From: a virus
IMG/VR virus record: IMGVR_UViG_3300021963_007958
DNA length: 64,000 nt
Strand: one strand, 5' to 3'
Shown here: positions 11,379 through 56,428 of the stretch, one piece after another
Position numbering within the stretch: the stretch's first letter is position 1
Layout of the letters: each line of letters starts with the position of its first letter
Translations under genes and position numbers: made by a program
Notes under the pieces: generated by a model
The model's input: only the letters and a program-made list of their open reading frames with translations
Told to the model about the DNA's origin: nothing
Databases searched by the model: none

Positions 11379-12365
11379 TTAGTTTCCCTTGGGTTTAGGA
11401 ACTATTGAGTATCTCTCTCTAGCCTTAGCATAAAGCTCGTCCAGATTTTCTTCCGTTAGAGTATTAGAAAGAATTTTCTTCAGTTGATCTATTTCTTTCC
11501 CTTTATCGGTAAAAGAATCCATCTGTTTAGAAGATTCTGGCTTCCAGTCGTGGGACTTAAGGATTGAGTTTAGATAGTTTATAACAGGCTCTTGATACAA
11601 GCTAGGATCTTTCTTTAAGCTAGCATTGAAAAGATATTGGTGAACTGGGTCTTTGGCCAGGTCTGTTAATTTTCCAGTTTTCCTGATAAATTTTCCCTTT
11701 GGAGTATTAAAGATGGTTTCAAACCCAGGCTTATCTCTATAGACCTCTATATCGGGAGAATATGAATCTGAATTGAGATAAATTTTTAGAATATTCAAAA
11801 AATCCTCTGCATCTTTCTTCTTCAGTTCAATTTCAGTTCCGTCCTCTAATTTTGCAATCCAGTGAAGATTTTTCTTCTTTGTGATCCCACCTATAGGAGA
11901 ATCCATTCCTAGAATTTCCAGAACTGTATTGATGTCTCCTGAAGCATCATCTTCGGGGGTTTGAAAATGTTTAGACTCGATGAAAGAATTTATAAATTCG
12001 TCCAGGTTTAATTGATTTTCTTCATTATCCCAAAATCTAACGCCGGGCTTTGTTTCTATGATTGGATTTTTAGAATCTCCAGAAACAACAAAAGCATCTT
12101 TTGGAAAATAGATCGGATCAGATTCCTGATTGTCCCCATAAATATATTTCAAGCACAAATTTGGTAGATCTGAAGACACGTCAGAGGCAAAAATAGAGTT
12201 AGCATCTGGATCTCCCCCCATTTCAGGACAGCAGGATTTCATCTTGTATCCCCATTTCTCAAAAGGACCTAATATTCCAAAATTTTTCTTATATGAATTT
12301 CCTTCATTTAGAGAATAAGAAAAATCCGAAAAGTTAGAAATCAAATTGTTCTTCATATTATTCAT
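11379..12365 (-). CDS. hypothetical protein with capsid-targeting-like leader
   Basis: N-terminus MKNNLISNFSDFSYSLNE. Confidence 0.6.
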   Translation of the reverse strand: MNNMKNNLISNFSDFSYSLNEGNSYKKNFGILGPFEKWGYKMKSCCPEMGGDPDANSIFASDVSSDLPNLCLKYIYGDNQESDPIYFPKDAFVVSGDSKNPIIETKPGVRFWDNEENQLNLDEFINSFIESKHFQTPEDDASGDINTVLEILGMDSPIGGITKKKNLHWIAKLEDGTEIELKKKDAEDFLNILKIYLNSDSYSPDIEVYRDKPGFETIFNTPKGKFIRKTGKLTDLAKDPVHQYLFNASLKKDPSLYQEPVINYLNSILKSHDWKPESSKQMDSFTDKGKEIDQLKKILSNTLTEENLDELYAKARERYSIVPKPKGN

Positions 12366-23274: not shown

Positions 23275-25347
23275 TTAGAATTTTCCTTCGAGAGCTTCAG
23301 CAATCGATCTTAGATAATCGTTAGAATATCCAATAGGAGTTACTGGTGTCTCGTTGGTTTCGATATTTTCGTTCTCAACAAGTTTTTGAAGACCAAGATT
23401 TCTGCCAAGTTGACGAGTTGACCAGAAGTTTTTGATTTGGTAAGGAGTTTCTAAGTTGTAGAAGGAAGCTTGAGCAATCAAAGATTGTCTGTGTCCTTCA
23501 CTTAGAGATTCCCAAACCTGAGCATATTCTTCAGGAGCTTCGTCTACAAATTTGTAACCTGCGCTTGGTTTAGATTCTTCTTCGTTCAAGTTCTCGTTTA
23601 GAACTAGGTCTGCCTTTTGGGTTTGAGCAGGCAACTGGAATCTTTCAGCTGCTTTGTTTGTAAGGGTTTCAGTTTTTTGGGTTTGAACTGATTCTATTAG
23701 TGCGTCAATTTTGCTAGAAACTGTTGAGTAATCTCCTGCAAAACCTGACTCAAATAGACCTGCATTAGAAGCTAGGTCTGCTTGTTCGATTGCGCTCTCG
23801 TTGATTGAATCACCAAGAGAGTTGTTTACGCTTTCTGCAATATATTCAGAATAAGCGATGTTGTTTTTAACTTTTTCTGCTAGATAGTCAGAATAAGCAA
23901 TTCCTTTATTTAGGTTTTCAGCCAGATACTCAGAGTAAGCAATTCCTTTATTTAGGTTTTCTGCTACATACTCGGTGTATCCGATACCTTGATCTAGTTT
24001 TTCTGCGATATATTCGCTGTAACCGATACCCTGATCTACTTTTTCTGCTAGGTACTCTGAATAAGAAATTCCTTTGTCAAGATTTTCTGCAAGATACTCA
24101 GAATAAGAAATGTTGGTGTCTACTTTTTCAGCCACATACTCAGAATACTGGATTGACTCGTCTACTTTTTCTGCTAGATATTTAGCGTATTCTACAGACT
24201 TATCAAGATTTTCAGCTACATACTCCGAATAAGAGATTGATTTATCCACGTTTTCAGCAAGATACTTAGAGTAAGAAATATTCTTGTCCAAGTTCTCAGC
24301 CAAATATTTAGAATAAGTGATGCTGTTGTCTAGATTTTCTGCCAAGTATTCTCCATACTTAATAGCTCCGCTTAGAGTTTCTGCTAGGTAGTTAGAATAT
24401 TTTTCTAGTTTAGCAACTCTGTCTTCCATAGATTCAGTAGAAGTAGCAGAAGGACCGTTGTTGTAACCGTTACCAAGAGCAGGCATAGGCTTGTTGAAGC
24501 TCAATGCTTGACCTTCTTCAACTCTTTCTGATCTTAAACTAGCAATTTCAGCCTTCATGGCGTCCATTTCTTTCTTTAAGAACATTGTGTACTGGTTAAG
24601 ATCATCAGCACTTACAAATTCTCTGTTAGGGGTATTCTCCATAATAGTGGATTTATTTTTATCTTTGTTGATTATTTTTTTAAATTCTTCGTTGTCGTTG
24701 ACATTATATATCCTCAAAGAATCGCTATTTTTTAGTCCTAGTGATTCATTTACACATTCTAGACCATTAATAACGCTTTTTTGTCTCTTATATATAACTT
24801 CATCGTGTGAAAAACCAGCACTTTCGTATACTCTCTCAAGCTGAGCGTCCTGAAATCCAGGGTCTGCTACAAGATCATAAGTGAAGATTTTCTTGATTTG
24901 AACCTTTTTATCTGGTCCTACATTACCAGCAGCTCTAGAAGAAATAGAAAGAGGAACTCCTGCATCTACAAGTCTTTTTGCAATTTGTCCTGCTGGGGTG
25001 TCTAGTAATCTAACTTTAATTCCAATTGTTCTTCCCTCTCTGTCATGAGTTAGATCCTCGATGACGTGGGAAACATTATTTAAAGAAATATCAAACTTCT
25101 CTGGGTGATCTAACTCACCAACAAGTCTTTTTTGTTTGATTTTATCCTTTAGATAATCTAAATGCGGAAGGTATTCACCTTCTTCGTAGATACGATTGTT
25201 ATTGTTTTCTTTCCCGAACTGAGCAGCAATACCCTTAAGGATATACTCTTTTCCTTCAGAAGTCATCTCTTTGGATGCTTCTAGGATTTGATTCTGCTTC
25301 TCCAGAATGAAAACCATATTTTCGTTAAGTGTTGAAGTTCTTGACAT
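23275..25347 (-). CDS. prohead protease (gp21-like) fused to scaffold (gp22-like)
   Basis: NNNNRIY, LVGELDHP, SISSRAAG, TYDLVADPGF protease motifs followed by a coiled-coil repeat region. Confidence 0.9.
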   Translation of the reverse strand: MSRTSTLNENMVFILEKQNQILEASKEMTSEGKEYILKGIAAQFGKENNNNRIYEEGEYLPHLDYLKDKIKQKRLVGELDHPEKFDISLNNVSHVIEDLTHDREGRTIGIKVRLLDTPAGQIAKRLVDAGVPLSISSRAAGNVGPDKKVQIKKIFTYDLVADPGFQDAQLERVYESAGFSHDEVIYKRQKSVINGLECVNESLGLKNSDSLRIYNVNDNEEFKKIINKDKNKSTIMENTPNREFVSADDLNQYTMFLKKEMDAMKAEIASLRSERVEEGQALSFNKPMPALGNGYNNGPSATSTESMEDRVAKLEKYSNYLAETLSGAIKYGEYLAENLDNSITYSKYLAENLDKNISYSKYLAENVDKSISYSEYVAENLDKSVEYAKYLAEKVDESIQYSEYVAEKVDTNISYSEYLAENLDKGISYSEYLAEKVDQGIGYSEYIAEKLDQGIGYTEYVAENLNKGIAYSEYLAENLNKGIAYSDYLAEKVKNNIAYSEYIAESVNNSLGDSINESAIEQADLASNAGLFESGFAGDYSTVSSKIDALIESVQTQKTETLTNKAAERFQLPAQTQKADLVLNENLNEEESKPSAGYKFVDEAPEEYAQVWESLSEGHRQSLIAQASFYNLETPYQIKNFWSTRQLGRNLGLQKLVENENIETNETPVTPIGYSNDYLRSIAEALEGKF
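23815..24402 (-). repeat. 14 tandem 42-bp (14-aa) coding repeats, consensus SYSEYLAENLDKGI
   Basis: Counted directly in the translation. Confidence 0.9.
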
Positions 25348-30257: not shown

Positions 30258-30283
30258 ATATTTCTTTAATAGAATATACGGTC

Positions 30284-32281: not shown

Positions 32282-32710
32282 TCAATCTTTCTCGATAGAT
32301 TTTAGCTGGATTGAAATCTCTTTAATCCAAGACTCATACTTCTGGGGGTAGAATTTCTTAAGGTCCGAAATCTCCCTTTTGGAAATTTCAAACCTTTTCA
32401 AGATGAAAGCTTCTGCATCTTCATAGTCTGAAAAATCTATCTTTTTATCTTCCTTACCTTCTTTCTTCTTAGTCTTCGTAAAGATCCAAGAAGGGGACTT
32501 TGAATAATAATTTGACATTGTCCCGTGCCACCAGTCGACCACGGGTGCGGGGGAAATCTTAGTATGGTTAAATTGATTGGCTTGAATTGGCCACTGGATA
32601 GACATGATTCTGTTGATCATAAAGAAGTTTCGAACTTTGTCGTTCTTACCTACTTCCTCCCAGTCTTTCTTCTTTTTAAAGATTGTTTTTATGACGTCGA
32701 ATAGTTCCAT
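32282..32710 (-). CDS. clamp loader small subunit (gp62-like)
   Basis: FFMINRIMS..ANQFN..W.FTK pattern; in the replication cluster with gp44. Confidence 0.55.
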   Translation of the reverse strand: MELFDVIKTIFKKKKDWEEVGKNDKVRNFFMINRIMSIQWPIQANQFNHTKISPAPVVDWWHGTMSNYYSKSPSWIFTKTKKKEGKEDKKIDFSDYEDAEAFILKRFEISKREISDLKKFYPQKYESWIKEISIQLKSIEKD

Positions 32711-33846
32711 TAAAAGTTAGCAAAAGGATCAAATGCCTTAGGAACCGATTGGGTTGTAGCCCATGAAGTTCCTTCTAATATCTTTACTCTGTCTATAGTG
32801 ATACTCTTCCTAGGGATTTCAATTCCACGGGAAACTTCACCATCACAATTAGTGATTACAAACTCCGGCATTACACTTCTGTCGAGCCACATTAGAGTAT
32901 AGTTTCTTAAAAGATTCTTTGTCACCTTCTCTCTGTTCTCTTTATTATCTACGTCTTTTAAAATTCTAAGAATAAATCCGGAAACCCAGGATAAGAAGTT
33001 TTGGTCTTGTAGCATGTCAATAAATCTAGAATCTTTCCATTCGGATTGATTAAGAGATTCAAGAATCTGTTCTGCTTTCTTGGGAGAAATCCCATTGAAC
33101 TTTCCATTGGGTGCTTGAACATACCAAACCCCGGGAACTGCATCACCTTTATCTCCAGTTAACATCTTATTGAAGACAAAGTCTCTTCTTCTTACTTCTT
33201 CTACGGTCACTTTCTTTAGGAACTCTTTAATCTTTTCCTTGTCCGGGGAAATTGCAGCTGTCATGTCGAAAATAGAAACAGATTCTGCCTTATTAACCCA
33301 GTTATCTTCCCATCCCGGAGGAACAGCTAAGATGTTATTCTTAGAATTATTGTTCCAGATGATAGTCCATCCTCTGTCATTGTGTCTAGCAAGCTGGTGC
33401 ATATCTTTATCACCGCTGATAATAATACAATTTTCACCAATCGAGTTGAAGTAGTCAGACCAATAGTAGAGAAGATCATCACCTTCTGCACCTTTTACTT
33501 TCGAAAATACAAATCCTTGATTCTCCAGTTGATGACCAAACTCTGTCATTAGATCAAAGAAGATTGTCCAGTCTACGGTTTCGTCTTTTACCCGGTTGGA
33601 CTTATATCCTCCGTCCTCGATTTCAACATCTTTTCTCCACGATCTGCTATCTGAGGTGAAGATCAATCTTCCACCTTGGGGAAGCAATTTGAGTCCAGCA
33701 CACAAGTCCGTAGCAACCTTACGGATGAACATTGCCTGTTCTCCGGGAGTACCGAGAACCTTAGAAGGGTCTTTTGCCCCGAATCCACCGAAGACTCCAA
33801 AGGTCTTATGGAAAATATAGTTTCCGTCTACAAGTATATTAATCAT
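32710..33846 (-). CDS. rnh: T4 RNase H-like 5'-3' exonuclease / flap endonuclease
   Basis: ILVDGN, SWRK, YKSNR, EGDD, SGDKDMHQL, LTGDKGDAVPG. Confidence 0.88.
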   Translation of the reverse strand: MINILVDGNYIFHKTFGVFGGFGAKDPSKVLGTPGEQAMFIRKVATDLCAGLKLLPQGGRLIFTSDSRSWRKDVEIEDGGYKSNRVKDETVDWTIFFDLMTEFGHQLENQGFVFSKVKGAEGDDLLYYWSDYFNSIGENCIIISGDKDMHQLARHNDRGWTIIWNNNSKNNILAVPPGWEDNWVNKAESVSIFDMTAAISPDKEKIKEFLKKVTVEEVRRRDFVFNKMLTGDKGDAVPGVWYVQAPNGKFNGISPKKAEQILESLNQSEWKDSRFIDMLQDQNFLSWVSGFILRILKDVDNKENREKVTKNLLRNYTLMWLDRSVMPEFVITNCDGEVSRGIEIPRKSITIDRVKILEGTSWATTQSVPKAFDPFANF

Positions 33847-36032: not shown

Positions 36033-37373
36033 TTAGAACATCTTAGACATATCATCTGCCTGAGTCTTATCATTTCGAATCTCGATGAAGCGGGGTAAGA
36101 ATAAGCTACGTCCCCCGAATTTATCTGTGATTGGTTCGTTGTATTGAATTGCTGCAATCTTACCAATTAGAGAATCTGCATCTTGACTGAGTTCATGAAG
36201 GTCTTTATCAGTGAATCCAGATCCAATTCTAACCTCCAGAGTTCCACTGGCATCTTTACAGATGAATCCTCCAATGAATCCTTCTCTCTTTCCTTCTCCG
36301 GGAAACCATCCGGTAATCTCCAGGTCGCAGTCTTGAATCTGCTTTAGCTTCACCCAATTTCTGCTCCTTTTACACTCATAGACGTGATCTGCTGGCTTTA
36401 AAATAACTCCTTCCCCTCCCATTGAAACAATCAGTCCGTAGATCTTTTGAGTTTCCTCAATAGAATCTACTACCCATTGACGTGCCAGTTTTACTTTGGA
36501 ATCCTCTTTGAGGAACCCAAGTAGAAACTCGAGTTCTTGTCTTCTCTTGAGGAAAGGAACGTTGCCTTTTCCTATTTTTAATGTCTCCGATTTTTCGATG
36601 TCAAACACATTAAAGAGGAAATCTTTATCTATATCATTTGAAGCGGTGCCTTTTAGGATCTGAGTTACCTTACCAGATACAGATTTTCTATTTAGATCCG
36701 TTAATTCCCCGTCAAAAAAGACCTCGCTAGTTGTGTTAGAGTTGTGTAAAGCCTGAATCAGCTCGGACTCGATTCTAGAAAGTTTAGACTTGTCTAACTC
36801 ATTAAAAGCTCTAGTATAAAACTGAAATCCTTTTTCTCTGTCTCCTACTGCTATTACACGAACTCCATCATACTTTTCCTCGCAGTAGATTTTATCCCAT
36901 CCGGCTACTTCCTTCCGGTCATCAGAAGCTAGCATTACCGACGGATCGGGAATTAATTCTCTCCCTACCGCCTTGTTGATGAGTTTAGCCCCAATTCCAA
37001 TGTTCATTCTCTTTGTCAGAATCTTCATTAGAATTACTCTAAGAGCCATATCCTCAGCTAGATCTTTTTCATGTATGACGGAATTAATAAGAGCATTAGC
37101 TCTAGATCTCAAAGAGTCATTTGCAGCAGGAGCTTTTTTAAGATCCTCCACTAGAGACTTAAAAGTTTCAAACCCTGGAAATTCAGGGACATCTAGATTT
37201 TGAGATAACTCTAGCTTATGAAGTTTAGTTGTAATGAATGGATTAAAGCAGACATCTAAGATGTAAAGCATTTCCTCCGATAAATTCTCGGAAATTAATC
37301 TCTGTTTTTCTTTCTGGGATCCGTTTCCTTCCATGGATTCAACGGACAATAGGACTCTGAGTTCTTGTTTCAT
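36033..37373 (-). CDS. lig: ATP-dependent DNA ligase
   Basis: EEKYDGVR, FDGEL, EGVILK, WVKLK, GSGFTD, SLFLPRF..IRNDK. Confidence 0.93.
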   Translation of the reverse strand: MKQELRVLLSVESMEGNGSQKEKQRLISENLSEEMLYILDVCFNPFITTKLHKLELSQNLDVPEFPGFETFKSLVEDLKKAPAANDSLRSRANALINSVIHEKDLAEDMALRVILMKILTKRMNIGIGAKLINKAVGRELIPDPSVMLASDDRKEVAGWDKIYCEEKYDGVRVIAVGDREKGFQFYTRAFNELDKSKLSRIESELIQALHNSNTTSEVFFDGELTDLNRKSVSGKVTQILKGTASNDIDKDFLFNVFDIEKSETLKIGKGNVPFLKRRQELEFLLGFLKEDSKVKLARQWVVDSIEETQKIYGLIVSMGGEGVILKPADHVYECKRSRNWVKLKQIQDCDLEITGWFPGEGKREGFIGGFICKDASGTLEVRIGSGFTDKDLHELSQDADSLIGKIAAIQYNEPITDKFGGRSLFLPRFIEIRNDKTQADDMSKMF

Positions 37374-37396: not shown

Positions 37397-37407
37397 AATA
37401 TACGGTC
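37397..37407 (-). promoter_or_regulatory. putative GACCGTATATT promoter element (ligase; representative site)
   Basis: Identical at 30273-30283 and nearly identical at 52025-52035. Confidence 0.6.
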
Positions 37408-37411
37408 TCGA

Positions 37412-39010
37412 TTATAGAGTGAATGATCCTCCCTCAGCTTCTCCCTCTTTTCCACCTTCTTTTTTAGCTTTTTCTGCTTCTTTTGCTTCGTCTTCTTTAT
37501 AGACTTTATTCTTATCAAATTCGTCTCTAGACAAAGGAAGGAATCTTCTAATCAAGAAATCCTTGTCGAAGTAAGGTTTTTCTTCCTCTCCAACTTTCAT
37601 CTTGATTTCTCCTAGTGAAGTAACAAAGTCGGTTGCTTTAGTTAGGTGAGCCAAATCTAAAAGCTTTGAGAATTGATTTTCGCTATAGTAATCTAAACCG
37701 AGATTCGCCTTGAAGCTTCTGTCTTTAGAAAGCTCGGGAAAGTCTAAACACATCTGAATATAAAGGGGTTTAACTACTATCTCCTGGAAAATAGATCTAA
37801 GTCTAGTTAAGAATTTTTCAAACCTAATTTCATCTCTTTCAAGCTGATCGATTGAGATTTGATAGTTAGCAGGAGTTGCTCCTCTACCTGCAAATCTCGC
37901 ATATGGGATTTTAGAATCTAGTTTTAGCTTGTTATAGAAATAAATTACATTTTCCATTACGTTAAAGTCCGGACCATTTGCGTTTAGAACATCAATTTGT
38001 GGGGACTGTCCATCTTTCTCAGGAAACAGATAATTCTTATAAAACTGTATCTTGGGTGTTCCGTTAACCAGAAGCTCACCCGATGTGTCGTTAATACTAA
38101 CCTCTTCCTTATAAGAAGACATTAACTGACCCAGAGTTTGCATTGCTTTCTGTTGAGATTGGGTTCCAACCGGAATGACAAATTTCAATCTATAAGAAGC
38201 ATTCATTACGTTCCAGATAACTCTGGTGTTCTCCATTACTCTTAAAATGTTGTAAGATCTGATAAGTCGTTCAACGTAGCTAACTCTAGAAATAGAATTT
38301 CCCTTAGCGTAAGAAATGTAGATGATCTGTTCAGACTTTAATTTTCTAGAAAGTTGAGAGTCTTTAGGATATTGAATCCAAATCTGTTCAAAGGATCCGT
38401 CGGGAGCTTTCTCCGTATGGGGTTGGAGTGAAGTTGGATCGAGTTCTTTAAACCCAACTATCTTTTTACCGTCTGTGGAATAAACAATTTCAAAAGCAAG
38501 AAATCCATCGATCAAGAACTGCTTAAAAAGCTGCCAAGCTAAGTTGTTCTGTTGGAATGCATAGAGCATGTAAATAGTTTTAAAGTTCTCGTGAACTTTA
38601 TCTATGATTTTATCCTTCAGATCTATGTTATTTAGAAGTGGCTGGCAGAAGAAGTTTTTATCGTCATAGTTAACTGCCTCGTCTGAGATGGTTTCTAGAA
38701 TGAAATCGATCTCTCCGTTCAGTGCAAACTTTCTTAAAAAGTCCCTTTTACCTAAATAGTCCTTATCGAAATAAGCAATATATTTTCTTATTCTTGTATC
38801 CTGGTATCCAAGAGTCCAATAAAAAGCACTATCGTTGGTGAACCCATTTCCCTCTTCTGAGAACATCTGAGATTCAGTTTGCCCAATAGTCTGAGAATTA
38901 CGAATGACCATGTCTTCGTATTGCATTCCAAATTTACCAATTCTACTCAGATTTTTGTAGAGCTGGGTAATGAATCTATTCTGTGGGTTTGAATCTAAAA
39001 ATCCTGCCAT
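37412..39010 (-). CDS. portal protein, copy 2 (T4 gp20-like)
   Basis: FLIDG, SYVERLIRSYNILRVMEN, IPYARF, RDEIRFEKFLTRLR (gp20 RDE+KF.KF+.RLR motif). Confidence 0.88.
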   Translation of the reverse strand: MAGFLDSNPQNRFITQLYKNLSRIGKFGMQYEDMVIRNSQTIGQTESQMFSEEGNGFTNDSAFYWTLGYQDTRIRKYIAYFDKDYLGKRDFLRKFALNGEIDFILETISDEAVNYDDKNFFCQPLLNNIDLKDKIIDKVHENFKTIYMLYAFQQNNLAWQLFKQFLIDGFLAFEIVYSTDGKKIVGFKELDPTSLQPHTEKAPDGSFEQIWIQYPKDSQLSRKLKSEQIIYISYAKGNSISRVSYVERLIRSYNILRVMENTRVIWNVMNASYRLKFVIPVGTQSQQKAMQTLGQLMSSYKEEVSINDTSGELLVNGTPKIQFYKNYLFPEKDGQSPQIDVLNANGPDFNVMENVIYFYNKLKLDSKIPYARFAGRGATPANYQISIDQLERDEIRFEKFLTRLRSIFQEIVVKPLYIQMCLDFPELSKDRSFKANLGLDYYSENQFSKLLDLAHLTKATDFVTSLGEIKMKVGEEEKPYFDKDFLIRRFLPLSRDEFDKNKVYKEDEAKEAEKAKKEGGKEGEAEGGSFTL

Positions 39011-39019
39011 TTATCTTTT

Positions 39020-40639
39020 TTATGCTGGTGGGGCTTCTGCTGCTGCCGGTGCTGCTGCCGGTGCTGCTGCCGGTGCTGCTGGGGTAGCTCCTGCTGCCGG
39101 TGCTGCTCCCTCTTTTTTCTTCTCCTCTGCTTTCTTTCTAGCTTCTGCGTTTGCTCTGATATCGTCGCTAGTAAGACCCAAATAATTTTCAACTAGGTAT
39201 GGAACTGAGAAGAATCCTCCACCCGTGTCGTCGGTTAGAGTCATCAATTTATCAACAGATTCCTTTTTCTTTAGGATAATCTCCATTTCCTGATTTCTCT
39301 TAAATGGGTTATCCGAGACGTAATCAAGACCAAGTTGACTTTTAAACATGTAATCTTTCTCCAGTTCCGGGAAATCTTTACACATTTGAATCCACAGAGG
39401 CTTAATTAAAATGTCCTGAAAAGCAGTTCTAAGTCTATTGATAAACTTAGCAAATCTAATTTCCTGTTTGTCTAAACCCTCCGCTGCATTTGCATACTTT
39501 CCCATCGATCCCCCATCTGGACCATTAAATCTAGAATTAGGAACTTTAGATTCGTTAATCAGTTTGTCAAAAAAGTATGCTAAGGGTGCAGGGTCATTAA
39601 GGTTCGGCCCTACATTATTTAGAGGTTCAATAGTGGGGGTTCCGTTCACACCGGAAGGCATTAAGTAGTTTTTAAAGAACTGAATCTTCGGTGCTCCATT
39701 TACAAATAATTCTCCACTTTGATCGTTTAGGGAGATATCTTCTTTATAGATACTCATCAACTCTCCTAACGTCTGCATTCCTTTTTGTTGAGATCTAGTT
39801 CCGATTGGAACTGTCATCTTCATTCTGAAAGAAGCATTCATTACAGACCAAATAACCCTTGTGTATTCTATAATTCTAAGGATGTTATAAGGTCTAATAA
39901 GTCTTTCGGTGTAGCTGACTCTCGAAACTGTATTCCCCTTTGCATAAGAAATGTAGATAATCTGGGAGTCATATAGCATTCTTTTTCTCCTTGGATCTTT
40001 GAAATATTGCCACCAAACGTTCAGATAGCTTCCGTCATTTTGTTTTTCGACAGAAGGCATCAAAGTCATAGCATCGATCTCTTTGAATCCGATGATGTTT
40101 TTTCCTTTGTCGTCGTAGATAATTTCAAATGCAACATATCCGTCTACCAGGAATTGTCTGAAATACTGCCAAGCACTAATGTCGTCAGTGAATCCAAACA
40201 TGTCATACAATTTCTTGTAATTTTCGTTGATCTTATCGATGACTTTTTCCTTCAGTCCAGTTAGATTTAAGAAAGCAGGATATGCAAAAAAGTTATGAGA
40301 ATCGTATGTGATTGACTCGTCATTAACTACATCCAGGATGAATTCAATCTCAGGGTTTAGTGAAAATTTTCTAAGATAATCCCTTTTACCTTTGTAGTCC
40401 TTGTCAAAATAAGAAACATACTGTCTCGACGTGGTATCTTGTCTAGCCAGAGCATAGAGCATCGTCTCGTCCTCAATCATTCCTTTTTTGAGGAATGCTG
40501 CTTCGGTTTGACCGATGGCTTGAGAATTTTTAACCACCATGTCTCCATAGTTTAACCCAAAGTTACTTAGATTCTTTACTGAATCTCTAATTCTTTGGAA
40601 GATAGGACTACCTTGTGGATTTTCTAAAAAACCTGCCAT
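39020..40639 (-). CDS. portal protein, copy 1 (T4 gp20-like)
   Basis: FRQFLVDG, SYTERLIRPYNILRIIE, KVPNSRF, QEIRFAKFINRLR; Ala/Pro-rich C-terminal tail. Confidence 0.88.
   Translation of the reverse strand: MAGFLENPQGSPIFQRIRDSVKNLSNFGLNYGDMVVKNSQAIGQTEAAFLKKGMIEDETMLYALARQDTTSRQYVSYFDKDYKGKRDYLRKFSLNPEIEFILDVVNDESITYDSHNFFAYPAFLNLTGLKEKVIDKINENYKKLYDMFGFTDDISAWQYFRQFLVDGYVAFEIIYDDKGKNIIGFKEIDAMTLMPSVEKQNDGSYLNVWWQYFKDPRRKRMLYDSQIIYISYAKGNTVSRVSYTERLIRPYNILRIIEYTRVIWSVMNASFRMKMTVPIGTRSQQKGMQTLGELMSIYKEDISLNDQSGELFVNGAPKIQFFKNYLMPSGVNGTPTIEPLNNVGPNLNDPAPLAYFFDKLINESKVPNSRFNGPDGGSMGKYANAAEGLDKQEIRFAKFINRLRTAFQDILIKPLWIQMCKDFPELEKDYMFKSQLGLDYVSDNPFKRNQEMEIILKKKESVDKLMTLTDDTGGGFFSVPYLVENYLGLTSDDIRANAEARKKAEEKKKEGAAPAAGATPAAPAAAPAAAPAAAEAPPA
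39039..39107 (-). repeat. 12-bp tandem repeat encoding the (PAAA)n tail of portal 1
   Basis: gctgctgccggt repeated three times plus a partial copy. Confidence 0.8.
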
Positions 40640-42128: not shown

Positions 42129-42152
42129 CTTTAATATTTTAGTGTAAAAAAT

Positions 42153-42192
42153 AAATCCGCACTTAATGTATTATATCATTTAGTGCGGATTT
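42153..42192 (-). terminator. terminator-like hairpin with TATAAT in its loop
   Basis: AAATCCGCACT-T-AATG / CATT-T-AGTGCGGATTT, followed by ATTTTTT on the minus strand. Confidence 0.7.
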
Positions 42193-42212
42193 GGTTTCGG
42201 GAAGTTTCCCTA

Positions 42213-42851
42213 TTAGTCCATGTCGAACCAGCTCTTTTCTCCAGGCTCTGGAGCTTTTACTGCTGGTCTATAAGCTCTATCCGTTGTTCCGGTTAGAATT
42301 TTATTGATACTTCTATCGATCGCATCATAGTCAACTTGTTGAGATCCAGAAGGTTCTTTAACTACTTTTCTCATTAATTGATTATTAGCTCCAAGAAGTC
42401 TTGTTTTAATTAGCGTTCTAAGATTACCGTAAATCTGACCGTCCGTTAGGTTTGGTTTATCTACACTCTTGTGCCAGTCTTGAAGAACATCTTTTAGAGT
42501 TGTAGCAATTACTTCATCAAACTGCTCGTCGCTCAAATTGGACCATCTTCTTCTGAACTCGCCATAAGCTACAGAATTGATTAACTCGACAAGCATTTTA
42601 GCGAGTTTGTGGGTTACTGTTCTAACAGGTCTGCGGGGATTGCCTAGAACTTTAATATAAACTGTTTCCCCTTCTGCAAGAGATTTCTTAACCTCATCTG
42701 CAAGTTCTTTCTGGTCAATAAACTTTTTAGCCTCGAGAATAACCCCTTCAAAGTAGTTATCCGGCTGAACATCAATGAAGATATTTTCTCCTAAGTATAG
42801 AGGTTTAGATTCTACTAAGAAATTTTCAAAATTTGATAAGTTTTTCATCAT
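42213..42851 (-). CDS. divergent gp55-sigma-like paralog with capsid-targeting-like leader
   Basis: FIDQKELADEVKKSLAEG..VTHKLAKMLVELINSVA aligns by eye with YVKNSELMKAILESKEKG..LTPETIRMFYLMINGIS of the neighbour. Confidence 0.55.
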   Translation of the reverse strand: MMKNLSNFENFLVESKPLYLGENIFIDVQPDNYFEGVILEAKKFIDQKELADEVKKSLAEGETVYIKVLGNPRRPVRTVTHKLAKMLVELINSVAYGEFRRRWSNLSDEQFDEVIATTLKDVLQDWHKSVDKPNLTDGQIYGNLRTLIKTRLLGANNQLMRKVVKEPSGSQQVDYDAIDRSINKILTGTTDRAYRPAVKAPEPGEKSWFDMD

Positions 42852-42862
42852 TTAGTTCAGAA

Positions 42863-43198
42863 TTATTTCTTAATTGCTTTTTTAGCTTGTTTTCTAGCTT
42901 CATCTCCAATTTTATTTAGGAACTTCACATAGTCAACTGACTTAGTTTTTGTCAATGGATAATCTCCAATAAGATCGGATTTAATTCCAGAATCTTTTAC
43001 AGTGATTGAAGATTTTATTCCATCAATGTCTCTAGAAAGGGTTTCTCCACTCTCTTTATATCCATATGCCTTGGTAGCCATGTCGATGAAGTTCTTTTTG
43101 AATAAAGGATTAACAGCTGCTTTTCCTGCAGGTCCTTTTCCAAAAGCTTCGAATAATTCAGATTCGTTAATTTCTGAGTAAGATTTTAAATTTTTCAT
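42863..43198 (-). CDS. small putative internal head protein
   Basis: Leader MKNLKSYSEINESELFE; GATATATA at 43206-43213. Confidence 0.6.
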   Translation of the reverse strand: MKNLKSYSEINESELFEAFGKGPAGKAAVNPLFKKNFIDMATKAYGYKESGETLSRDIDGIKSSITVKDSGIKSDLIGDYPLTKTKSVDYVKFLNKIGDEARKQAKKAIKK

Positions 43199-43217
43199 AG
43201 TTATCTATATATCAATT

Positions 43218-43402
43218 TTATTCTTTGTCTTCTCCCTCTTCGTCTTCACGAGAAATGAGTGTATCTTCAGATTTTTTCGGTTTCCCGTCTGGAGCTACAC
43301 TCATTTTTCCTTCAGAACTTTCAATATCAGGTTGGGATTTTTTTCCTTCTGCTTCCTCATTTTCGGGAGCAAAAGCCCAAACTTTGCTAAGAGCTGACTT
43401 TA
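43218..43402 (-). CDS. probable -1 frameshift extension of the 989-aa protein
   Basis: Open frame LKSALSKVWAFAPENEEAEGKKSQPDIESSEGKMSVAPDGKPKK...KE* begins after an A9 run and fills the gap to the next promoter. Confidence 0.6.
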
Positions 43403-46369
43403 ATTTTTTTTTAATTCTGGACTAGGTCTGTCAAATCCTTCATTTACGAAAATCGATTGAAGCATTTTTTGTACCTCTTCAGAATCTTTATTCTCCATGA
43501 TGAAGTTCTTAATTCCATCTAGAGTTAATTCGGTTGGAGATGAATTTTCTCCTTCTCCAATATTGTAACCCATTTCAGCGTTAAGCTCATAATCAACTTC
43601 TCCGTCTGCACCTTTTGAAGGTGTTTCTGCTAAGTCTGCAGTATCCAAATTGTCAATATCTGCATTATTAGAAGCTTTAGCATCCAAATATTCAACTTCA
43701 TATCCTGCGTCTCCTTCTACTTTCCCTGGGGAAGTAGCGAAGTTTGGATCTGTTGTGTCTTTAGAAGGAACCTTAGAACCTTTTTCTGGAGCTGTTACTA
43801 GCTCTGCAGTATCAAGATTGTCGATCTCTGGACTGCTAGCTTTAGGAAGGTCGATCTTAATTGCATATCCTGAGTCTCCGACTTGTGCGCCTGGTGCAGT
43901 AGCAAGAGCTGGATCTAATTTAGAAAGATCCGACTCGTCCATTTTAGATTTTCCCGATCCCGGAGCAACCGCCATGTTGGAATTTCCAGTGATCTCAGGC
44001 TTCTTAGAAGCTTTAGGATCTGGATATTCAACTTTATAATCTGCATCTCCCTCTTCTTTACCGGGGGTAGAAGCTAAATTCATAGCCTTTAGTCCAGACT
44101 TTTCCCATTCTGTAGCCATGTTAGTTCCTTTAGGTTTTCCTTGAGGAGCAGTAGCTAGTGAAGGTTGGTTAGATTCTTCTAGATTATACCCGTTTTCGTC
44201 GTTTACTTCGTAGTCGGTAGGCTTATTTTTGCTTTCTGGTGCTTCTTCTAGATTTGCATCTTTAAGATTTTCAACGTCTTTCTTTCCGTCTTGGTCTTGA
44301 GTCTTAGCAGATGGAGCTGCAGAAGTGCTAGCTTTTAACACTTGAGCTGGAGTTTTACCGTGAACTAATTTACCAGTAGATGGGGCTTTTGCTAAAGGAG
44401 TGCTAGACTCTTTTACACCTTCGCCTTCTTCTGCGTTCTCGTCTGAAGATTTTTGGAATGCATCTTCAAGATCAACGATATCTTCTACTCCAAAATCACC
44501 GGTCTTTCCACTATCCAAAAGAACAGTGTAAGAACCTGATGTAGTATCTACTGAAATAATCTTTCCAGTATTTCCGTTTTCTTTAACTTTAACGTAATCC
44601 CCAACTGTGAATTTAGAATCTTCCATTAGATCTTCAATCACGGTAGGATTATTTTCAATAGAATCTAATTCTGCATTGATAGTAGACCATTTAGACTTAA
44701 GAGTCTGAAGTTCTTTTTCAAGAATAGAATAAGCTTGTGAAAGCTGGTTAGATCCTTTGAATAGAGGATTTGAAGCCACTAGGGTTTCGATCTTCTTCAT
44801 TTCACCTTCTACGATAGCAATGTTATCTATAACTTTCTTTCTATCGTTAATCATGATGGACTTAATCTTTCTCTCGCCATCCAAGAATTCAGTTAAACCT
44901 TCTGAAACGTCGTATTTCAAGAAGTCTTTAACGATGTTAGCTGCTTGAGATCCGTTAACTGCAAATAGAGAATTTTCTCTCATTGCTTCGTTAACCTTCT
45001 GAAGATACATCTTTCCGTCCCACTTAATCAAACTAACAGAAGCACCTTCGTAAACCTTAGAAACGATAGACTTAGCAAAGTCTAGATCTACAATTTTATC
45101 AAAGTTTTCGTAAAGTCTAATTGTATCAGAGATGAGTTTATTTTCGTTGGTTGCAAGTCCTCTTGAAACCTTCAAAGTGATAAGCTTTGCAAGCTGGTTG
45201 TAATCACCAAATTTAGCAAGATCATCATTTAGGTAGATTCTAGTTTCTTCGTTTTCTTCAACAATAGAAATTCTAGTGTCTCCAGCATAAATGGAAATTC
45301 CATTCTCGTTAACTTTAACACCTTCTGTGTAGAAAGTCTCAAGGAGACCCAAGAATTCTTTGTCCATATTAGCAACATCTCTATTAGAAAGTTTTCTAAC
45401 TCCTTCAGAGCTACCTTCAAATAAAGTTTTACCGATTGCAAAAATAGTTTTATTGTTTTCAACTAGTACAGGAGAATAAATTTTTCTGATTTCAGAATTT
45501 CCGTTGATAGTAGGAATATTCATTTTAGAATCATTTGTCTCAAGAAGAGTTAAATTATTAATAAGGTTCTTAACAACTGGGTTGAAAGACCAAACTCTAA
45601 GTTCTTTTGAAAGGGCAGGAATAGATTTGGATTCAGAAACTAACCATTTAGAGATTGATTCTTTAACAGGAGTATAGAAGTCAGAGCTTCCTGTGTTCTC
45701 GATTTGATACAAAGCTTTAGAAACTTCGATTTCTGGTCTAAGAGTATTGCAAGACTCAGCAACTCTATTTACTGCAGCTTTAACGCTGCTGTCCCACGAG
45801 AAGTTAGAGAAGTCAGAGATGAAATTCTCAGCAACCCAATACTCAGGAACGTTTTTGTTCTTTAGAATATTAACGTAGTTCTCGCAAAGAATTTTAAAAT
45901 TACCATGCTCGTAGATACCTCTCTTAGAAAGTTCTAGGATAGATTCTAGAATCCCTAAGTTTTCAACTTTGTTGGAATCAACAAATGAAGCAGCAGACTT
46001 GTCGAACTTCGCCATTCCCTCAAGAGCTTCGTTTAATTTATTTTGAATCTCGCTAGATGGCTTTTGCTCTTCTTCTGCCCCGTCTACATAAGAACCAGAG
46101 TTCTTAGAAGGATTGAAGGAATTAAGTCCTCCCCAAGATTCAGCAAGCATTTTAGCTCTAGATTTAGATCTCTCTAGCTCTTCATTTCTTAGAGCTTCGA
46201 TTGGAGAGATTGTGTTCTCTTCTCTAGATTCTATGGCTTCCACAACCTGAGATTCAGTAATAGAAGTGTTTCCCTTCTTCAGTTCAGTGATGTAGGTTTC
46301 ACACAAATCTTTAACTTCTCTGGATTGAGTAGTTTCTTTTAGATTTTGTAGTTTGTTTATTAAATCCAT
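43400..46369 (-). CDS. large prohead core/internal protein with acidic LATAP-type repeats
   Basis: 989 aa; many (L/I)xE motifs, KOW-like FTVGDYVKVK and degenerate C-terminal repeats; GATATATA at 46393-46400. Confidence 0.6.
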   Translation of the reverse strand: MDLINKLQNLKETTQSREVKDLCETYITELKKGNTSITESQVVEAIESREENTISPIEALRNEELERSKSRAKMLAESWGGLNSFNPSKNSGSYVDGAEEEQKPSSEIQNKLNEALEGMAKFDKSAASFVDSNKVENLGILESILELSKRGIYEHGNFKILCENYVNILKNKNVPEYWVAENFISDFSNFSWDSSVKAAVNRVAESCNTLRPEIEVSKALYQIENTGSSDFYTPVKESISKWLVSESKSIPALSKELRVWSFNPVVKNLINNLTLLETNDSKMNIPTINGNSEIRKIYSPVLVENNKTIFAIGKTLFEGSSEGVRKLSNRDVANMDKEFLGLLETFYTEGVKVNENGISIYAGDTRISIVEENEETRIYLNDDLAKFGDYNQLAKLITLKVSRGLATNENKLISDTIRLYENFDKIVDLDFAKSIVSKVYEGASVSLIKWDGKMYLQKVNEAMRENSLFAVNGSQAANIVKDFLKYDVSEGLTEFLDGERKIKSIMINDRKKVIDNIAIVEGEMKKIETLVASNPLFKGSNQLSQAYSILEKELQTLKSKWSTINAELDSIENNPTVIEDLMEDSKFTVGDYVKVKENGNTGKIISVDTTSGSYTVLLDSGKTGDFGVEDIVDLEDAFQKSSDENAEEGEGVKESSTPLAKAPSTGKLVHGKTPAQVLKASTSAAPSAKTQDQDGKKDVENLKDANLEEAPESKNKPTDYEVNDENGYNLEESNQPSLATAPQGKPKGTNMATEWEKSGLKAMNLASTPGKEEGDADYKVEYPDPKASKKPEITGNSNMAVAPGSGKSKMDESDLSKLDPALATAPGAQVGDSGYAIKIDLPKASSPEIDNLDTAELVTAPEKGSKVPSKDTTDPNFATSPGKVEGDAGYEVEYLDAKASNNADIDNLDTADLAETPSKGADGEVDYELNAEMGYNIGEGENSSPTELTLDGIKNFIMENKDSEEVQKMLQSIFVNEGFDRPSPELKKN

Positions 46370-49514: not shown

Positions 49515-50318
49515 TTATACATCAAAGATATCAGAATCTTCTCTGTTGTGCTGAAGATAAACTCTTAAGGGTTCTCTCAAATCTTTAATCGGGTGAATTT
49601 TAGCTGGACCTTCTGGTCCAATGTGACACAAAAAACCTCCGTGAGATTCTATTCCGATTTCTTCCTCGAGCATCAGTCTATATAAACTAACCTGGATAGA
49701 ATATTCATTTAAATGATTCTCCCAAAGGTGAGAGAATGGATGGAGTAATTTTTTATATCTTCCCTTCGGATGTTCGTCAGATCTAAACTCTTTGTTAGTC
49801 TTCCAGTCTCCTATCAGAAAAAGAACCATTTTCTGTTTTTCGTCCCACATTAGGAAAGGCTGATCTATAGTTCCAGCGAGCTTCCATTTTCTGCAGAATA
49901 TTTTAAGCTCTGAAGATAAGGGAACTAGATTCTTAAATCTTTTTTCATAGAGATCCATAAATTTTCCAATTCTCTCTACAAAAGCGGGTTCGTCATCTTC
50001 GGTTAGTTCTCTGACATTACCTGACCAAAAATCCTCTATCCATTTATGAACTCTTGTTCCAAGATCATTAGCAACATCTGCCTTTCCCTGCCATTCATCT
50101 AAAACTACAGAAACATCAACTCCTCTTTCTGCTGCTTTCTTTTTAGACCAGTATTCCTTATCGAATGGAGTTTTAAATCTCTTAATGTAGGAAGTTACCG
50201 AATCATACTTTATGTCCCTATAGTGGTAAGTGTGAGCTTCTTCTTCAAAGATAAAGTTTGGATCTTTAAAGACAGAAAGCTTTTTAATTAGATCTTTTCT
50301 AATCGGCTTTAAGTCCAT
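49515..50318 (-). CDS. PD-(D/E)XK exonuclease (Cas4/RecB-like)
   Basis: SVT, GTRVH, LAGTIDQ, IGDWKTN, YSIQVSLY. Confidence 0.85.
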   Translation of the reverse strand: MDLKPIRKDLIKKLSVFKDPNFIFEEEAHTYHYRDIKYDSVTSYIKRFKTPFDKEYWSKKKAAERGVDVSVVLDEWQGKADVANDLGTRVHKWIEDFWSGNVRELTEDDEPAFVERIGKFMDLYEKRFKNLVPLSSELKIFCRKWKLAGTIDQPFLMWDEKQKMVLFLIGDWKTNKEFRSDEHPKGRYKKLLHPFSHLWENHLNEYSIQVSLYRLMLEEEIGIESHGGFLCHIGPEGPAKIHPIKDLREPLRVYLQHNREDSDIFDV

Positions 50319-50798: not shown

Positions 50799-51410
50799 TT
50801 ACTTGTTTTCCTCCATCTTTAGACGAATTTTATTTCTAGCTCGTCTGATTCTAGTGGCAATAGATCTTTTTTTGATGCCATATTTTTCCGCTATGTCTTT
50901 ATATTTCATCCCATTAATTTCTCTATCTATCATAATGTCCCGGTAGAGAGAAGGGAGGGACCTAATTTCTTCAATTGCTGTTTCGTACATATCATCTATA
51001 GACTCTCCTTCGCTAGCAAAGCTCCAGAGGGGATCTTCGTCTATATTATATGAAGGATTCTTCTCCTCGTTCTTAGAGGAAGAATAGTCTAGGTCTTCTA
51101 TAGAAAGATGGACATATTTCTTTCTAGTCTTTAGAAGAAGAAGAGATTCATTTCTAGCAATATTATAACACCACGTAGAAAAATTTCCTCTAGAACTATC
51201 ATATTGATCTATCTTTTGCCAGACTTTGGCCATTGCATTCAAGAATGCATCCTCTGCTAACTCCGGGTCTTTTAGAATCCCATAGCAATGATTTAATACC
51301 CCGGGTTTAACTCTTTCATAAAGTGATTTAAAACTTCTTTCATCCCTAGTCTCAATAAAATTGTTTGCAAGTACTTGGATGTTCTTTTCTTTCTTAATTT
51401 CTTTTTGCAT
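50799..51410 (-). CDS. sigma-70 family ECF-type RNA polymerase sigma factor
   Basis: Region 2 AEDAF..VWQKIDQYD..GNFSTWCYNIARNE; region 4 LPSLYRDIM..GMKYKDIAEKYGI..IATRIRRAR. Confidence 0.9.
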   Translation of the reverse strand: MQKEIKKEKNIQVLANNFIETRDERSFKSLYERVKPGVLNHCYGILKDPELAEDAFLNAMAKVWQKIDQYDSSRGNFSTWCYNIARNESLLLLKTRKKYVHLSIEDLDYSSSKNEEKNPSYNIDEDPLWSFASEGESIDDMYETAIEEIRSLPSLYRDIMIDREINGMKYKDIAEKYGIKKRSIATRIRRARNKIRLKMEENK

Positions 51411-51995: not shown

Positions 51996-52067
51996 TTAGT
52001 AGTTCTTTAGATCTCTTACCATCTAATATACGGACCTAAATTCTATAAGCTGAAAAAATCTTGAAAT

Positions 52068-54786: not shown

Positions 54787-55281
54787 CTAAGCGTTAATGT
54801 TAGAAATTGCAGCTTTAGATCTTTTTACAGAATCTCTTTTTGCTGATTCTATTGGATTACACCAAATAAGTCTATCTTGATCCTCCGTAGCCTTTAGATC
54901 ATCATATAAAGGTTTTACAGCCTTTAATAGTGCTTCTGAGAAATTATTCATCTTTTTATTCTGATCAGCATTTCCTTGGTACATGCTTAAGGTTGTATTC
55001 CCGAAACGTTCTTTGGCTTTATCCGGGGTTGGAAACTCCATAGAAGTAGGGAAAAAATCTTTCCCCGCTAATTTTAGGGCCCAAGCAATCAAATATCTAT
55101 TATTAAAAGAGGTGTCGCCAAAAACTTTTTTAATATTATCAAAAGTGAGACTGGTCTGTTGTTCATCTTTTGTATTTTTTCTAAGCTCCTCGATGGCAGC
55201 CTGTGCTCTTTTTGGATCCCATTCTTGTACTCCCTCGTTTAGAGCCTGAACAAATGAATCGAAATATGATAAATTTTTCAT
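54787..55281 (-). CDS. putative internal virion protein
   Basis: Leader MKNLSYFDSFVQALNE. Confidence 0.55.
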   Translation of the reverse strand: MKNLSYFDSFVQALNEGVQEWDPKRAQAAIEELRKNTKDEQQTSLTFDNIKKVFGDTSFNNRYLIAWALKLAGKDFFPTSMEFPTPDKAKERFGNTTLSMYQGNADQNKKMNNFSEALLKAVKPLYDDLKATEDQDRLIWCNPIESAKRDSVKRSKAAISNINA

Positions 55282-55283
55282 TT

Positions 55284-55862
55284 TTAGATGAATTGATCTT
55301 GCCAGTAGTCTGCCTTCCAGCTAGTAGCTAATGTGTATAGAGTTTCTCCTGCATCATAGTTTAGATCCATTGGATTCAAATCTGCAGTCAGGAAGCAGTT
55401 ATTTAGGCTGATTCTTCTAAATACATCTCCCTGTTTATTGAAGATCGAAACCACGATAGATCCAACATAGTCTTTTTTTAGACCCATTGCACCAGTTAGT
55501 GGGTTATAAATCAAATCCGCCCATTGTCTCATGATTTTATAAACAATCATGGAATTCTGTTCATTCAAGTTAACCTCGAAATCTATGCTAAATGCAACAG
55601 AAGTATCTGAAGGAGCACCTCCTGCATATCTTCTTTCTGCAAACTTATAAAACTGACTAGCAGCTCCTGCAGGTTGAATATCAACCGCAAGACCTGATAT
55701 CTTCTTCACCTGCTGGGTTAGAATACCTTCTCCTCTGAATCTAGTATTAGCTAAAGTAACACTAGCGGGAGGGGTAATCAAAACCTCAAACTGGTTGAGA
55801 TAAACTGGTTCGTACAGTTTTACTCCGGCTGCCGAGTTGGTAAAATGTGGTAATCCTGCCAT
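55284..55862 (-). CDS. tail tube protein, copy 2 (gp19-like)
   Basis: EPVYLNQFEV, FEVNLN, RQWADLIYNPLTG, WKADYW; follows the sheath gene. Confidence 0.85.
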   Translation of the reverse strand: MAGLPHFTNSAAGVKLYEPVYLNQFEVLITPPASVTLANTRFRGEGILTQQVKKISGLAVDIQPAGAASQFYKFAERRYAGGAPSDTSVAFSIDFEVNLNEQNSMIVYKIMRQWADLIYNPLTGAMGLKKDYVGSIVVSIFNKQGDVFRRISLNNCFLTADLNPMDLNYDAGETLYTLATSWKADYWQDQFI

Positions 55863-55876
55863 TTATTTTAATTTTT

Positions 55877-56428
55877 TTATGAGAATTGGTCGTCCCAGTA
55901 ATCTACTGCCCACTGTAAGCTAATGTCATATAGTTCAGTTCCTCCATAGTCTAGTTCCATCGCACCGATAGGGGCGATAGGGAAGCAGTCTCTGCAGGTA
56001 ATTCTTCTAAATACATCTCCTTGTTTGTTAAAGACAGAAATAACAATAGTTCCGGTATAATCTCTCTTTAGACCCATCGCACCTGTGAGAGGGTTGTAAA
56101 TAAGGTCTGTCCATTGTCTCAAAGTCTTGAACACGTACATGGAGTTTGCATCGTTCAAGTTGACGGTAAAGTTAACCGTTAGATCAAAAACTGTGCTATC
56201 GGGTTTTGCACCTGCATAGTTTCTAACCGCAAACTTATATTTCTGCTGTGTTGCAGCAGGAGTTTTATCCACGCCCAAACCTGAAATGCTTGTCACCTGT
56301 TCAACCAGAATTGGTCCTCCCAGGACTGCTGCCGGGGGCGTAATAAGAACTTCAAACTGGTTGAGATAAACGGGTTCGTATTTGTTTATCCCAAACAGTG
56401 AATTCTGATAGTGTGGTAATCCAGCCAT
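55877..56428 (-). CDS. tail tube protein, copy 1 (gp19-like)
   Basis: EPVYLNQFEV, RQWTDLIYNPLTG, CFPI, WAVDYW. Confidence 0.85.
   Translation of the reverse strand: MAGLPHYQNSLFGINKYEPVYLNQFEVLITPPAAVLGGPILVEQVTSISGLGVDKTPAATQQKYKFAVRNYAGAKPDSTVFDLTVNFTVNLNDANSMYVFKTLRQWTDLIYNPLTGAMGLKRDYTGTIVISVFNKQGDVFRRITCRDCFPIAPIGAMELDYGGTELYDISLQWAVDYWDDQFS

Follow-up and report, generated by a model that had tools for sequence, protein, structure and literature searches.

Directly upstream of a gp55-like late sigma gene, in a 64,000-nucleotide stretch of viral DNA (IMG/VR record IMGVR_UViG_3300021963_007958, in the following called the window), lies an open reading frame (ORF) for a protein that we call p212, and we were interested whether this protein is a sigma factor as well and why it starts with a segment that resembles a capsid-targeting tag. 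The original prediction, made by a model from the letters of the sequence, had taken p212 for a second, divergent gp55-like sigma that is made late, packaged and injected, either to redirect the host RNA polymerase or to block it as a decoy. From our analysis p212 is best explained as a lineage-specific, late-expressed cargo protein with a sigma region-2 body; to the whole chain, including delivery and early action, we give slightly less than an even chance, and its parts differ in strength as described below. The position of the ORF directly 5' of the gp55-like sigma gene was borne out, with a spacer of 84 nucleotides (nt) that holds a strong hairpin.

BLASTP of p212 against the neighbouring gp55-like protein (gp55L) gave no alignment. 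When alignments of the two families were compared by hhalign, residues 43-129 of p212 matched residues 3-68 of gp55L with a probability of 81.9% and E 1.1e-5, leaving a 16-residue insert on the p212 side, and the match consisted of exactly the three blocks which had been aligned by eye in the original prediction. As hhalign returns these blocks while BLASTP returns none, the resemblance is real but remote. Other sequence comparisons gave nothing: p212 did not match Sigma70_r2 (PF04542) at E up to 1, any PDB sequence profile with the limit set at E 10, or phrog_234, to which gp55L scores 2e-15, and hhalign against T4 gp55 alone led to an uninformative probability of 0.05%. The AlphaFold model of p212 has a mean predicted local distance difference test (pLDDT) score of 70.5, with 78-95 in the core and less than 50 in the linker. 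Its best Foldseek match in the PDB was T4 gp55 in the late-promoter open complex (7d7c_F), and VIA-align ranked gp55 (Z 9.5) before sigma32 (7.2) and sigmaS (6.9), followed by a fall to 4.8. A Foldseek-independent search of 48,161 representative solved chains returned sigma factors at all of the first 25 positions, led by gp55 (Z 9.3, root-mean-square deviation 2.5 A over 97 residues), pro-sigmaK (8.2) and sigma32 (7.4). A second, independent model, that of a relative with 56% identity to p212 (P0045), gave gp55 with Z 10.6 and a list whose top 32 entries were all sigma factors, each Z value taken singly being modest for a helical protein. On the combined strength of the uniform match lists, both models and the profile match, the sigma region-2 fold is secure, and T4 gp55 is the best match, as the fold check proposed earlier had anticipated. 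The claim that p212 is a divergent paralog of gp55 held in part: the remote homology and the gp55-closest fold stand, but p212 is no recent gp55 duplicate, and its deeper relatives have two domains. Profile hits to a baseplate hub (T4_baseplate, E 0.014; phrog_150, E 0.043) were rejected, both lying below threshold and being contradicted by the fold.

For the contact with RNA polymerase, residues 40-175 of p212 (with the family alignment) were modelled together with residues 1-420 of the beta' subunit of Flavobacterium johnsoniae. The median run reached an ipSAE of 0.78, compared to 0.03 for the best of three controls; 58 solved complexes out of 80 come up to that mark, as do 2 mismatched pairs out of 110. 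The three runs agreed in at least 69% of the contacts, with a partner pLDDT of at least 80. In the confident interface, beta' residues 273-319, which form the clamp helices, lie against helix 3 of p212 (residues 113, 116, 117, 119, 120, 123 and 124), helix 2 (84, 85 and 88) and an inserted hairpin (62-66 and 76-81). Helix 3 of gp55 touches the clamp helices likewise, as in the canonical contact between sigma region 2 and these helices (PMC7892883). The model supports, as a prediction, docking of p212 on the beta' clamp helices, for which a check with those of Bacteroidota had been suggested earlier, and on these predictions we consider a sigma-2 fold with polymerase binding to be highly probable. 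An internal head protein which reuses a sigma-2-like helical bundle, for instance for binding packaged DNA, and has no role in transcription would be consistent with the convergence that helical bundles can show and with Z values of 9-10, which are below the level deemed safe for helical matches. We regard it as very improbable in view of the top 25-32 matches being all sigma factors with two independent models, the profile-profile match to a true sigma family and the specific clamp-helix docking with clean controls; mature p212 is also not basic, with an isoelectric point of 6.7.

Would such a protein read promoters or only occupy the polymerase? In T4 gp55 the pocket motif NPxAYxTQ has the form NPHAYITQ (H95, Y97 and T99), to which gp55L aligns with NPFAYYTQ; p212 does not contain it, and the absence of NPFAY had been noticed correctly in the original prediction. 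The most conserved block of the p212 family, SVDKPNLTDGQIYGNLRTLIKTR, sits at the place of sigma regions 2.3 and 2.4, and nearly all of its residues are invariant, including Y141, with R145, K149 and R151 highly conserved. We infer an ungapped register with FDPAKSNNPFAYYTQ of gp55L and FDETKYKNPHAYITQ of T4, by which Y141 would correspond to T4 Y97, a tyrosine stacking on the flipped -12 adenine (PMC7892883). The inserted hairpin, for which gp55-like proteins have no counterpart, is formed in the model by strands 63-68 and 71-77, and Y65, P72, R74, V76 and T78 are invariant. At the C-terminus, conservation is at least 90% from G204 to W208 and complete at D210; the tail GEKSWFDMD and the end of T4 gp55, SLDFLYEAND, are not alignable. 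The p212 tail does align with the first residues of an additional C-terminal helical domain in longer relatives, namely P0045 (269 residues) and the P0047 clade (267-270 residues), where the domain has the signature IPLxxRxE...C[ST]Y. The extracytoplasmic function (ECF) sigmas SigH and SigL align over both their domains with the model of a two-domain relative, and the ten nearest named clusters in language-model features to the relatives' C-terminal domain were all Sigma70_r4 (scores 0.83-0.87), which we take as a lead only. Pfam Sigma70_r4 had no match in P0045 or P0047, and hhalign of this domain against the ECF-type sigma of the window as a single sequence, a search without power, gave nothing. 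The extra domain of the deeper relatives is probably sigma-4-like, and p212 most likely goes back to a leader-tagged sigma with two domains, the sigma-4 part of which was lost in the lineage of the window, leaving a gp55-style protein with sigma region 2 only. No loci of two-domain relatives were obtained from three collection scans, and no p212 relatives were found in five related viral fragments, the records of which are only 12-45% complete.

These features bear on the possibility that p212 is a packaged and injected sigma decoy which occupies the beta' clamp helices without reading any promoter, thereby shutting off host transcription or excluding host sigmas. The loss of a sigma-4-like domain that relatives keep, the missing gp55 pocket motif, the predicted clamp-helix binding and an accessory status usual for phage take-over effectors would all suit it. 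On the other hand, the best-conserved block, with its invariant tyrosine and basic residues, is the part of the loop and helix 4 which in sigma factors recognizes and melts the -10 element and which a pure decoy would not need, and gp55 itself is promoter-specific with a sigma-2 domain only (PMC7892883), so that we consider the decoy unlikely. Conservation at the equivalent of regions 2.3/2.4 and the sigma-4-bearing relatives lean to a promoter-reading factor, loss of sigma-4 and of the pocket motif to a decoy, and on balance redirection of the polymerase appears moderately better favoured than mere blocking.

The other part of the question concerns the N-terminus. The leader MMKNLSNFENFLVE that had been read from the sequence is present in the translation of p212, and its layout is that of T4 internal proteins: IPII and IPIII start with MKTYQEFIAE in the T4 record, and FENFLVE of p212 and YQEFIAE of T4 have the order aromatic-x-x-aromatic-aliphatic-x-Glu in common ([FY]xx[FY][LIV]xE). 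The prohead protease gp21 of T4 prefers to cleave at [LIV]-x-E. In T4 the capsid-targeting sequence alone loads foreign proteins into heads, and gp21 cuts the tag off (PMC3012670, PMC9958956). Among the 66 minus-strand ORFs of the window, a pattern to which the T4 tag conforms as well, [FYW]xx[FYW]x(0-4)[LIV]xE beginning in the first 16 residues, was found at nine N-termini compared to 0.9 expected (P 3e-7, with the protease ORF set aside); two leader patterns tried first had given P values of 0.04-0.08 only. The major capsid protein and the ORFs at 11379, 14010, 19174, 27909 and 54787 are among these nine, and p111, encoded next to p212, joins them under a slightly looser pattern. The p212 leader is kept, as MKNLKxFxxxxLES, in relatives that are merely 27% identical overall.

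An explanation for the shared tag may come from the prohead protease ORF of the window (23275-25347). It has a gp21-like domain at residues 8-234 (phrog_207, 5e-39) and, in its C-terminal half, 14 tandem repeats, into which 14 of the 30 internal matches to the tag pattern fall; each repeat resembles the capsid-targeting sequence of T4 and has an [LIV]-A-E site at its end. This ORF is probably a fused protease-scaffold protein, the repeats being the presumed scaffold unit that is mimicked by the leaders. As the pattern is shared with the 14 repeats, the tag copies the phage's own protease-scaffold repeat unit and ends in the site type of that protease family. Loading of p212 into heads seems slightly more probable than its absence from them. 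One could also imagine a pro-sigma checkpoint, in which leader and linker hold the sigma inactive until cleavage by the head protease couples the late switch to head assembly, in the manner of pro-sigmaK and pro-sigmaE processing during Bacillus sporulation; pro-sigmaK ranks second among the structural matches (Z 8.2 and 10.1), and the leader terminates in a protease-type site. A T4-type prohead protease works inside the prohead (PMC9958956), where a cleaved sigma would therefore be trapped, and the same tag occurs on many unrelated proteins, which makes such a checkpoint highly unlikely.

Late expression was suggested by the motif GATATATA, of which the window holds 16 copies, all on the coding strand, compared to 2.5 expected. 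It stands 7-31 nt ahead of the start codons of the protease, the sheath, p989, p111 and several leader-tagged genes, was retained before p111 in 10 of 12 related loci and is very probably this phage's equivalent of the T4 late promoter. The original prediction had put p212 downstream of a late-type promoter, which is correct for the unit headed by GATATATA but not for the gene itself: the motif precedes p111 and not p212 directly, and p212 is therefore the second gene of a two-gene unit. The hairpin in the spacer is terminator-like, with an 11-bp stem that is conserved in 12 related loci and a T-run. With a late motif at its head and a terminator at its end, the cassette forms a late unit of its own that is shielded from the late-sigma gene. 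As a separate observation, the loop of the hairpin holds TGATATAAT, a perfect -10-like element of the extended type, shortly before gp55L, which would be a promoter embedded in the terminator; an enrichment of TGNTATAAT was looked for within the window and not found.

The main rival is a cytoplasmic, non-packaged second sigma-like factor that acts late in infection, as a very-late promoter specificity factor or as a modulator of gp55-like-dependent transcription. Its N-terminal segment would be a mere helix or an autoinhibitory region, and its C-terminal tail may tether it to a partner such as a sliding clamp, as SLDFLYEAND does for T4 gp55. Such a factor would explain why p212 adjoins the late sigma and is its remote homologue, and its architecture, a sigma-2 core with a long helix 4 before a short helix 5 and a disordered linker that leads to a conserved motif at the C-terminus, parallels T4 gp55; the predicted polymerase binding fits equally. 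What speaks against it is that the leader agrees with the scaffold repeat and with tags on eight or more unrelated late ORFs, unexpected for a sigma-specific N-terminus, and persists in relatives of only 27% overall identity. In addition, the tail aligns with the beginning of the lost C-terminal domain and not with a clamp-binding motif, and a strong terminator separates the cassette from the late sigma gene. It is mainly the occurrence of the N-terminal tag on unrelated proteins and on the scaffold that weakens this explanation, which we consider rather unlikely, if a serious contender.

Comparison of related loci showed that the p111-p212 cassette is not a fixed part of this region. In the loci L024-L027, whose gp55-like gene is 81-86% identical, p989 is followed directly by a terminator and gp55L without p111 and p212 in between, which makes the cassette accessory. 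In more distant relatives unrelated leader-tagged ORFs occupy the site upstream of gp55L: L031 has two of them (127-483 and 546-1028), beginning with MKNLQTFSEFINE and MKTFKHFHEFINE, the ORF at 1546-1881 of L036 starts with MKSYQEFVNE, nearly the T4 tag, and another leader-tagged ORF stands at 997-1959 of L030. This place appears to be a hot spot for genes of cargo proteins; judged by the relatives that lack the cassette or carry other tagged genes there, p111-p212 is an accessory cassette in a cargo position that varies between phages. The T-even phages are comparable, their genes for internal proteins being hypervariable (PMC3012670). Since close relatives manage without the cassette, p212 would be an accessory take-over factor and not the essential early sigma of the clade.

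Taken together, we infer the following course for packaging, cleavage, ejection and the effect on transcription. The late-type promoter would drive p212 together with p111, and the N-terminal helix of p212, mimicking the YSEYLAE repeat, would let it co-assemble with the prohead core like the internal proteins of T4. The gp21-type protease would then cut the tag after L-V-E14, or possibly after G-E22, and mature p212 of about 22 kDa would leave the capsid with the DNA. In the new host, helix 3 and the additional beta-hairpin could grip the beta' clamp helices of the polymerase, and p212 would either steer the enzyme to phage promoters or oust the host sigma. The most specific version, in which a scaffold-mimicking tag packs a gp55-like factor with sigma-2 only that is trimmed, injected and at once redirects the host polymerase to a class of phage promoters, is possible but doubtful.

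Several results weigh against the reading of p212 as an injected sigma. On the side of the tag, the pattern was chosen post hoc, an unbiased test of N-terminal similarity showed just an approximately 1.7-fold excess, and the exact leader residues are only 68% conserved, E14 not being invariant. On the side of the sigma, p212 is not recognized as one by any Pfam, PHROG or PDB sequence profile, the NPxAYxTQ motif is missing, and the docking score was obtained with a Flavobacterium beta' as a stand-in and may reflect likeness to solved sigma-beta' complexes. Moreover, a sigma made late would compete with the working gp55-like factor unless it is sequestered or kept inactive, and the phages with an 81-86% identical gp55-like gene and no cassette at the site imply that p212 cannot be essential for the transcription programme of the clade. 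Coordinates of the features discussed are given in Table 1.

Table 1. Features of the p212 locus and of the protease ORF, in window coordinates (aa, amino acids).
Feature	Position	Strand	Basis or remark
p212 coding sequence, 212 aa	42213..42851	minus	ORF list
Leader MMKNLSNFENFLVE, capsid-targeting-like tag ending in L-x-E protease-type site	42810..42851	minus	translation
Sigma region-2-like helical core, residues 44-165	42357..42722	minus	AlphaFold2 pLDDT 78-95, VIA-align, hhalign
Basic beta-hairpin insert, 18 residues (62-79), between helices 1 and 2	42615..42668	minus	model
Most conserved block SVDKPNLTDGQIYGNLRTLIKTR, residues 129-151, loop and start of helix 4	42399..42467	minus	family alignment
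Conserved C-terminal tail GEKSWFDMD, after disordered linker	42216..42242	minus	family alignment
p111, first gene of cassette, leader-tagged (MKNLKSYSEINE)	42863..43198	minus	ORF list
Late-type promoter motif GATATATA heading p111-p212 unit	43206..43213	minus	7 nt before p111
Terminator-like hairpin, 11-bp stem and T-run, closing cassette	42141..42193	minus	-24.5 kcal/mol, z -6.9
gp55L, gp55-like late sigma, 118 aa	41772..42128	minus	phrog_234 2e-15, PF04542 Sigma70_r2 4.8e-5
14 tandem 14-residue repeats IxYSEY[LIV]AE[NK][LV]Dxx, C-terminal half of protease ORF	23818..24405	minus	

At least 45 metagenomic homologues of p212 were found, with 56-98% identity, every one of them starting with MKNL at the second methionine of the window ORF; the true start of p212 is probably the second ATG, at 42848. 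An exhaustive search with a hidden Markov model of 1.8 billion cluster representatives yielded only five proteins and added one further distant clade, P0047 (267 residues), so the family is narrow, and tblastn for relatives across 50,697 phage records gave no match. On the minus strand the genes follow 5' to 3' as p989 (989 residues, repetitive), p111, p212, gp55L, a gp4-like gene (head completion protein), a gp2-like gene (DNA end protector) and two portals, a T4-like morphogenesis block. This order was kept in 19 IMG/VR loci as far as each of them reaches, and p111, a protein of 111 residues without any family match, adjoins p212 in all 17 related loci that extend that far upstream. The nearest relatives of the window portal among GenBank phages are "huge phages" (460-735 kb) and Lak phages, indicating that the window derives from an uncultured megaphage.

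Further observations were made along the window. The two portal genes are full-length, T4-type and in tandem (37412-39010 and 39020-40639), with approximately 50% mutual identity, and both are present in each related locus long enough to reveal them. Two tail-tube paralogues (phrog_32623) are likewise in tandem, at 55284-55862 and 55877-56428, followed by a leader-tagged ORF of 164 residues at 54787-55281. The gap of about 200 nt after p989 (43218-43412, minus strand) is coding in the -1 frame: a run of nine A (43404-43412) lies just before the p989 stop codon (43400-43402), and the -1 frame stays open for about 60 further codons (...KVWAFAPENEE...MSVAPDGKP...EDKE*), up to 43218-43220. In the relatives L023-L027 the protein sequence of this extension is conserved, which suggests that programmed -1 frameshifting or transcriptional slippage yields a C-terminally extended p989. 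A third sigma gene, at 50799-51410 amid genes of nucleotide metabolism, encodes a two-domain ECF-type protein of 203 residues (phrog_1740, 1e-25) without a leader. Besides GATATATA, two more motifs are over-represented: CCGTATATT, with three copies compared to 0.22 expected (30273-30281, 37397-37405 and 52025-52033), before genes for a glycosylase, a ligase and a dCMP deaminase, and CTATAACTTA, with four copies compared to 0.17 expected (6198, 16686, 40657 and 50783), before a portal gene and ORFs of 180 and 149 residues. Three candidate promoter classes stand thus beside three sigma-like genes in the window. Finally, short acidic-aromatic tails (KAFDPFANF, DDMSKMF and DSDIFDV) end replication and repair enzymes at 32710-33846, 36033-37373 and 49515-50318 and might be sliding-clamp-binding motifs; no sliding clamp gene was identified within the window.

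Phage sigma factors, capsid-targeting tags and injected transcription proteins such as Alt and virion polymerases are each known separately. We found no report of a sigma factor packaged in a virion, which is not proof that none exists, and within the literature searched a tagged, sigma-like subunit among capsid cargo is undescribed; its support is computational. If the proposal is true, the phage would be the first known to carry a sigma subunit in its head, and early transcription would gain a third route, next to injected whole polymerases and injected enzymes that modify the polymerase. Outside the phiKZ and N4 groups, which inject whole polymerases, it is largely unknown how giant phages begin to transcribe in a new cell; a sigma-like subunit brought in with the capsid would be a less costly solution, which puts the host enzyme to use from the first second of infection. 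The cargo range of T4-type tags would be extended from defence inhibitors and Alt to promoter-specificity factors; were p212 a decoy, it would represent a new class of sigma-mimicking polymerase blocker. The proposal also links a portable loading tag, the phage's own scaffold repeat unit and the choice of cargo, which is useful for engineering protein delivery by phage heads.

Among known systems, T4 gp55 (7D7C/7D7D; PHROG 234) is similar to p212 as a stand-alone sigma region-2 domain (Z 9.3-10.6), in the long helix 4 with a short helix thereafter, in the disordered linker to a conserved C-terminal motif and in the contact of helix 3 to the beta' clamp helices, which is predicted for p212. Unlike gp55, p212 has the 18-residue beta-hairpin insert and about 43 extra N-terminal residues including the capsid-targeting-like tag, and it is under a late-type promoter, whereas gp55 is needed before the late genes; it is also accessory and not universal in its clade. 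Group 4 (ECF-type) sigmas share with the P0045/P0047 clade the order of sigma-2 domain, linker and helical C-terminal domain, but the clade has no match to Pfam Sigma70_r2 or Sigma70_r4 even at E 10, and p212 keeps just a nine-residue remnant of the C-terminal domain. In the Bacillus factors pro-sigmaK and pro-sigmaE a sigma carries a removable N-terminal pro-sequence during sporulation (8VJL_B being the second-best structural match); these are processed by membrane proteases of the sporangium, whereas the site in p212 fits a capsid maturation protease and its tag is common to non-sigma proteins. The T4 internal proteins IPI-III and Alt resemble p212 in their short tag at the N-terminus, of the form aromatic-x-x-aromatic-[LIV]-x-E. 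T4 and the window each encode a protease of the gp21 family, and in both cases expression is late, for p212 by prediction, and the gene locus is accessory and varies; Alt is a packaged enzyme that modifies the host RNA polymerase upon injection. The proposed p212 cargo differs in being a sigma-like domain predicted to bind the polymerase instead of an ADP-ribosyltransferase or a restriction inhibitor; the window tag, moreover, has a counterpart in the 14 repeats of a protease-scaffold fusion, a protein that is absent from T4. The virion RNA polymerase (vRNAP) of N4, the multisubunit vRNAP of phiKZ and SPN3US and the vRNAP of crAss-like phages are capsid-carried transcription proteins that are ejected at the start of infection (PMC5694885). 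Whereas these phages inject whole RNA polymerases, p212 would deliver only a specificity or binding subunit for the enzyme of the host.

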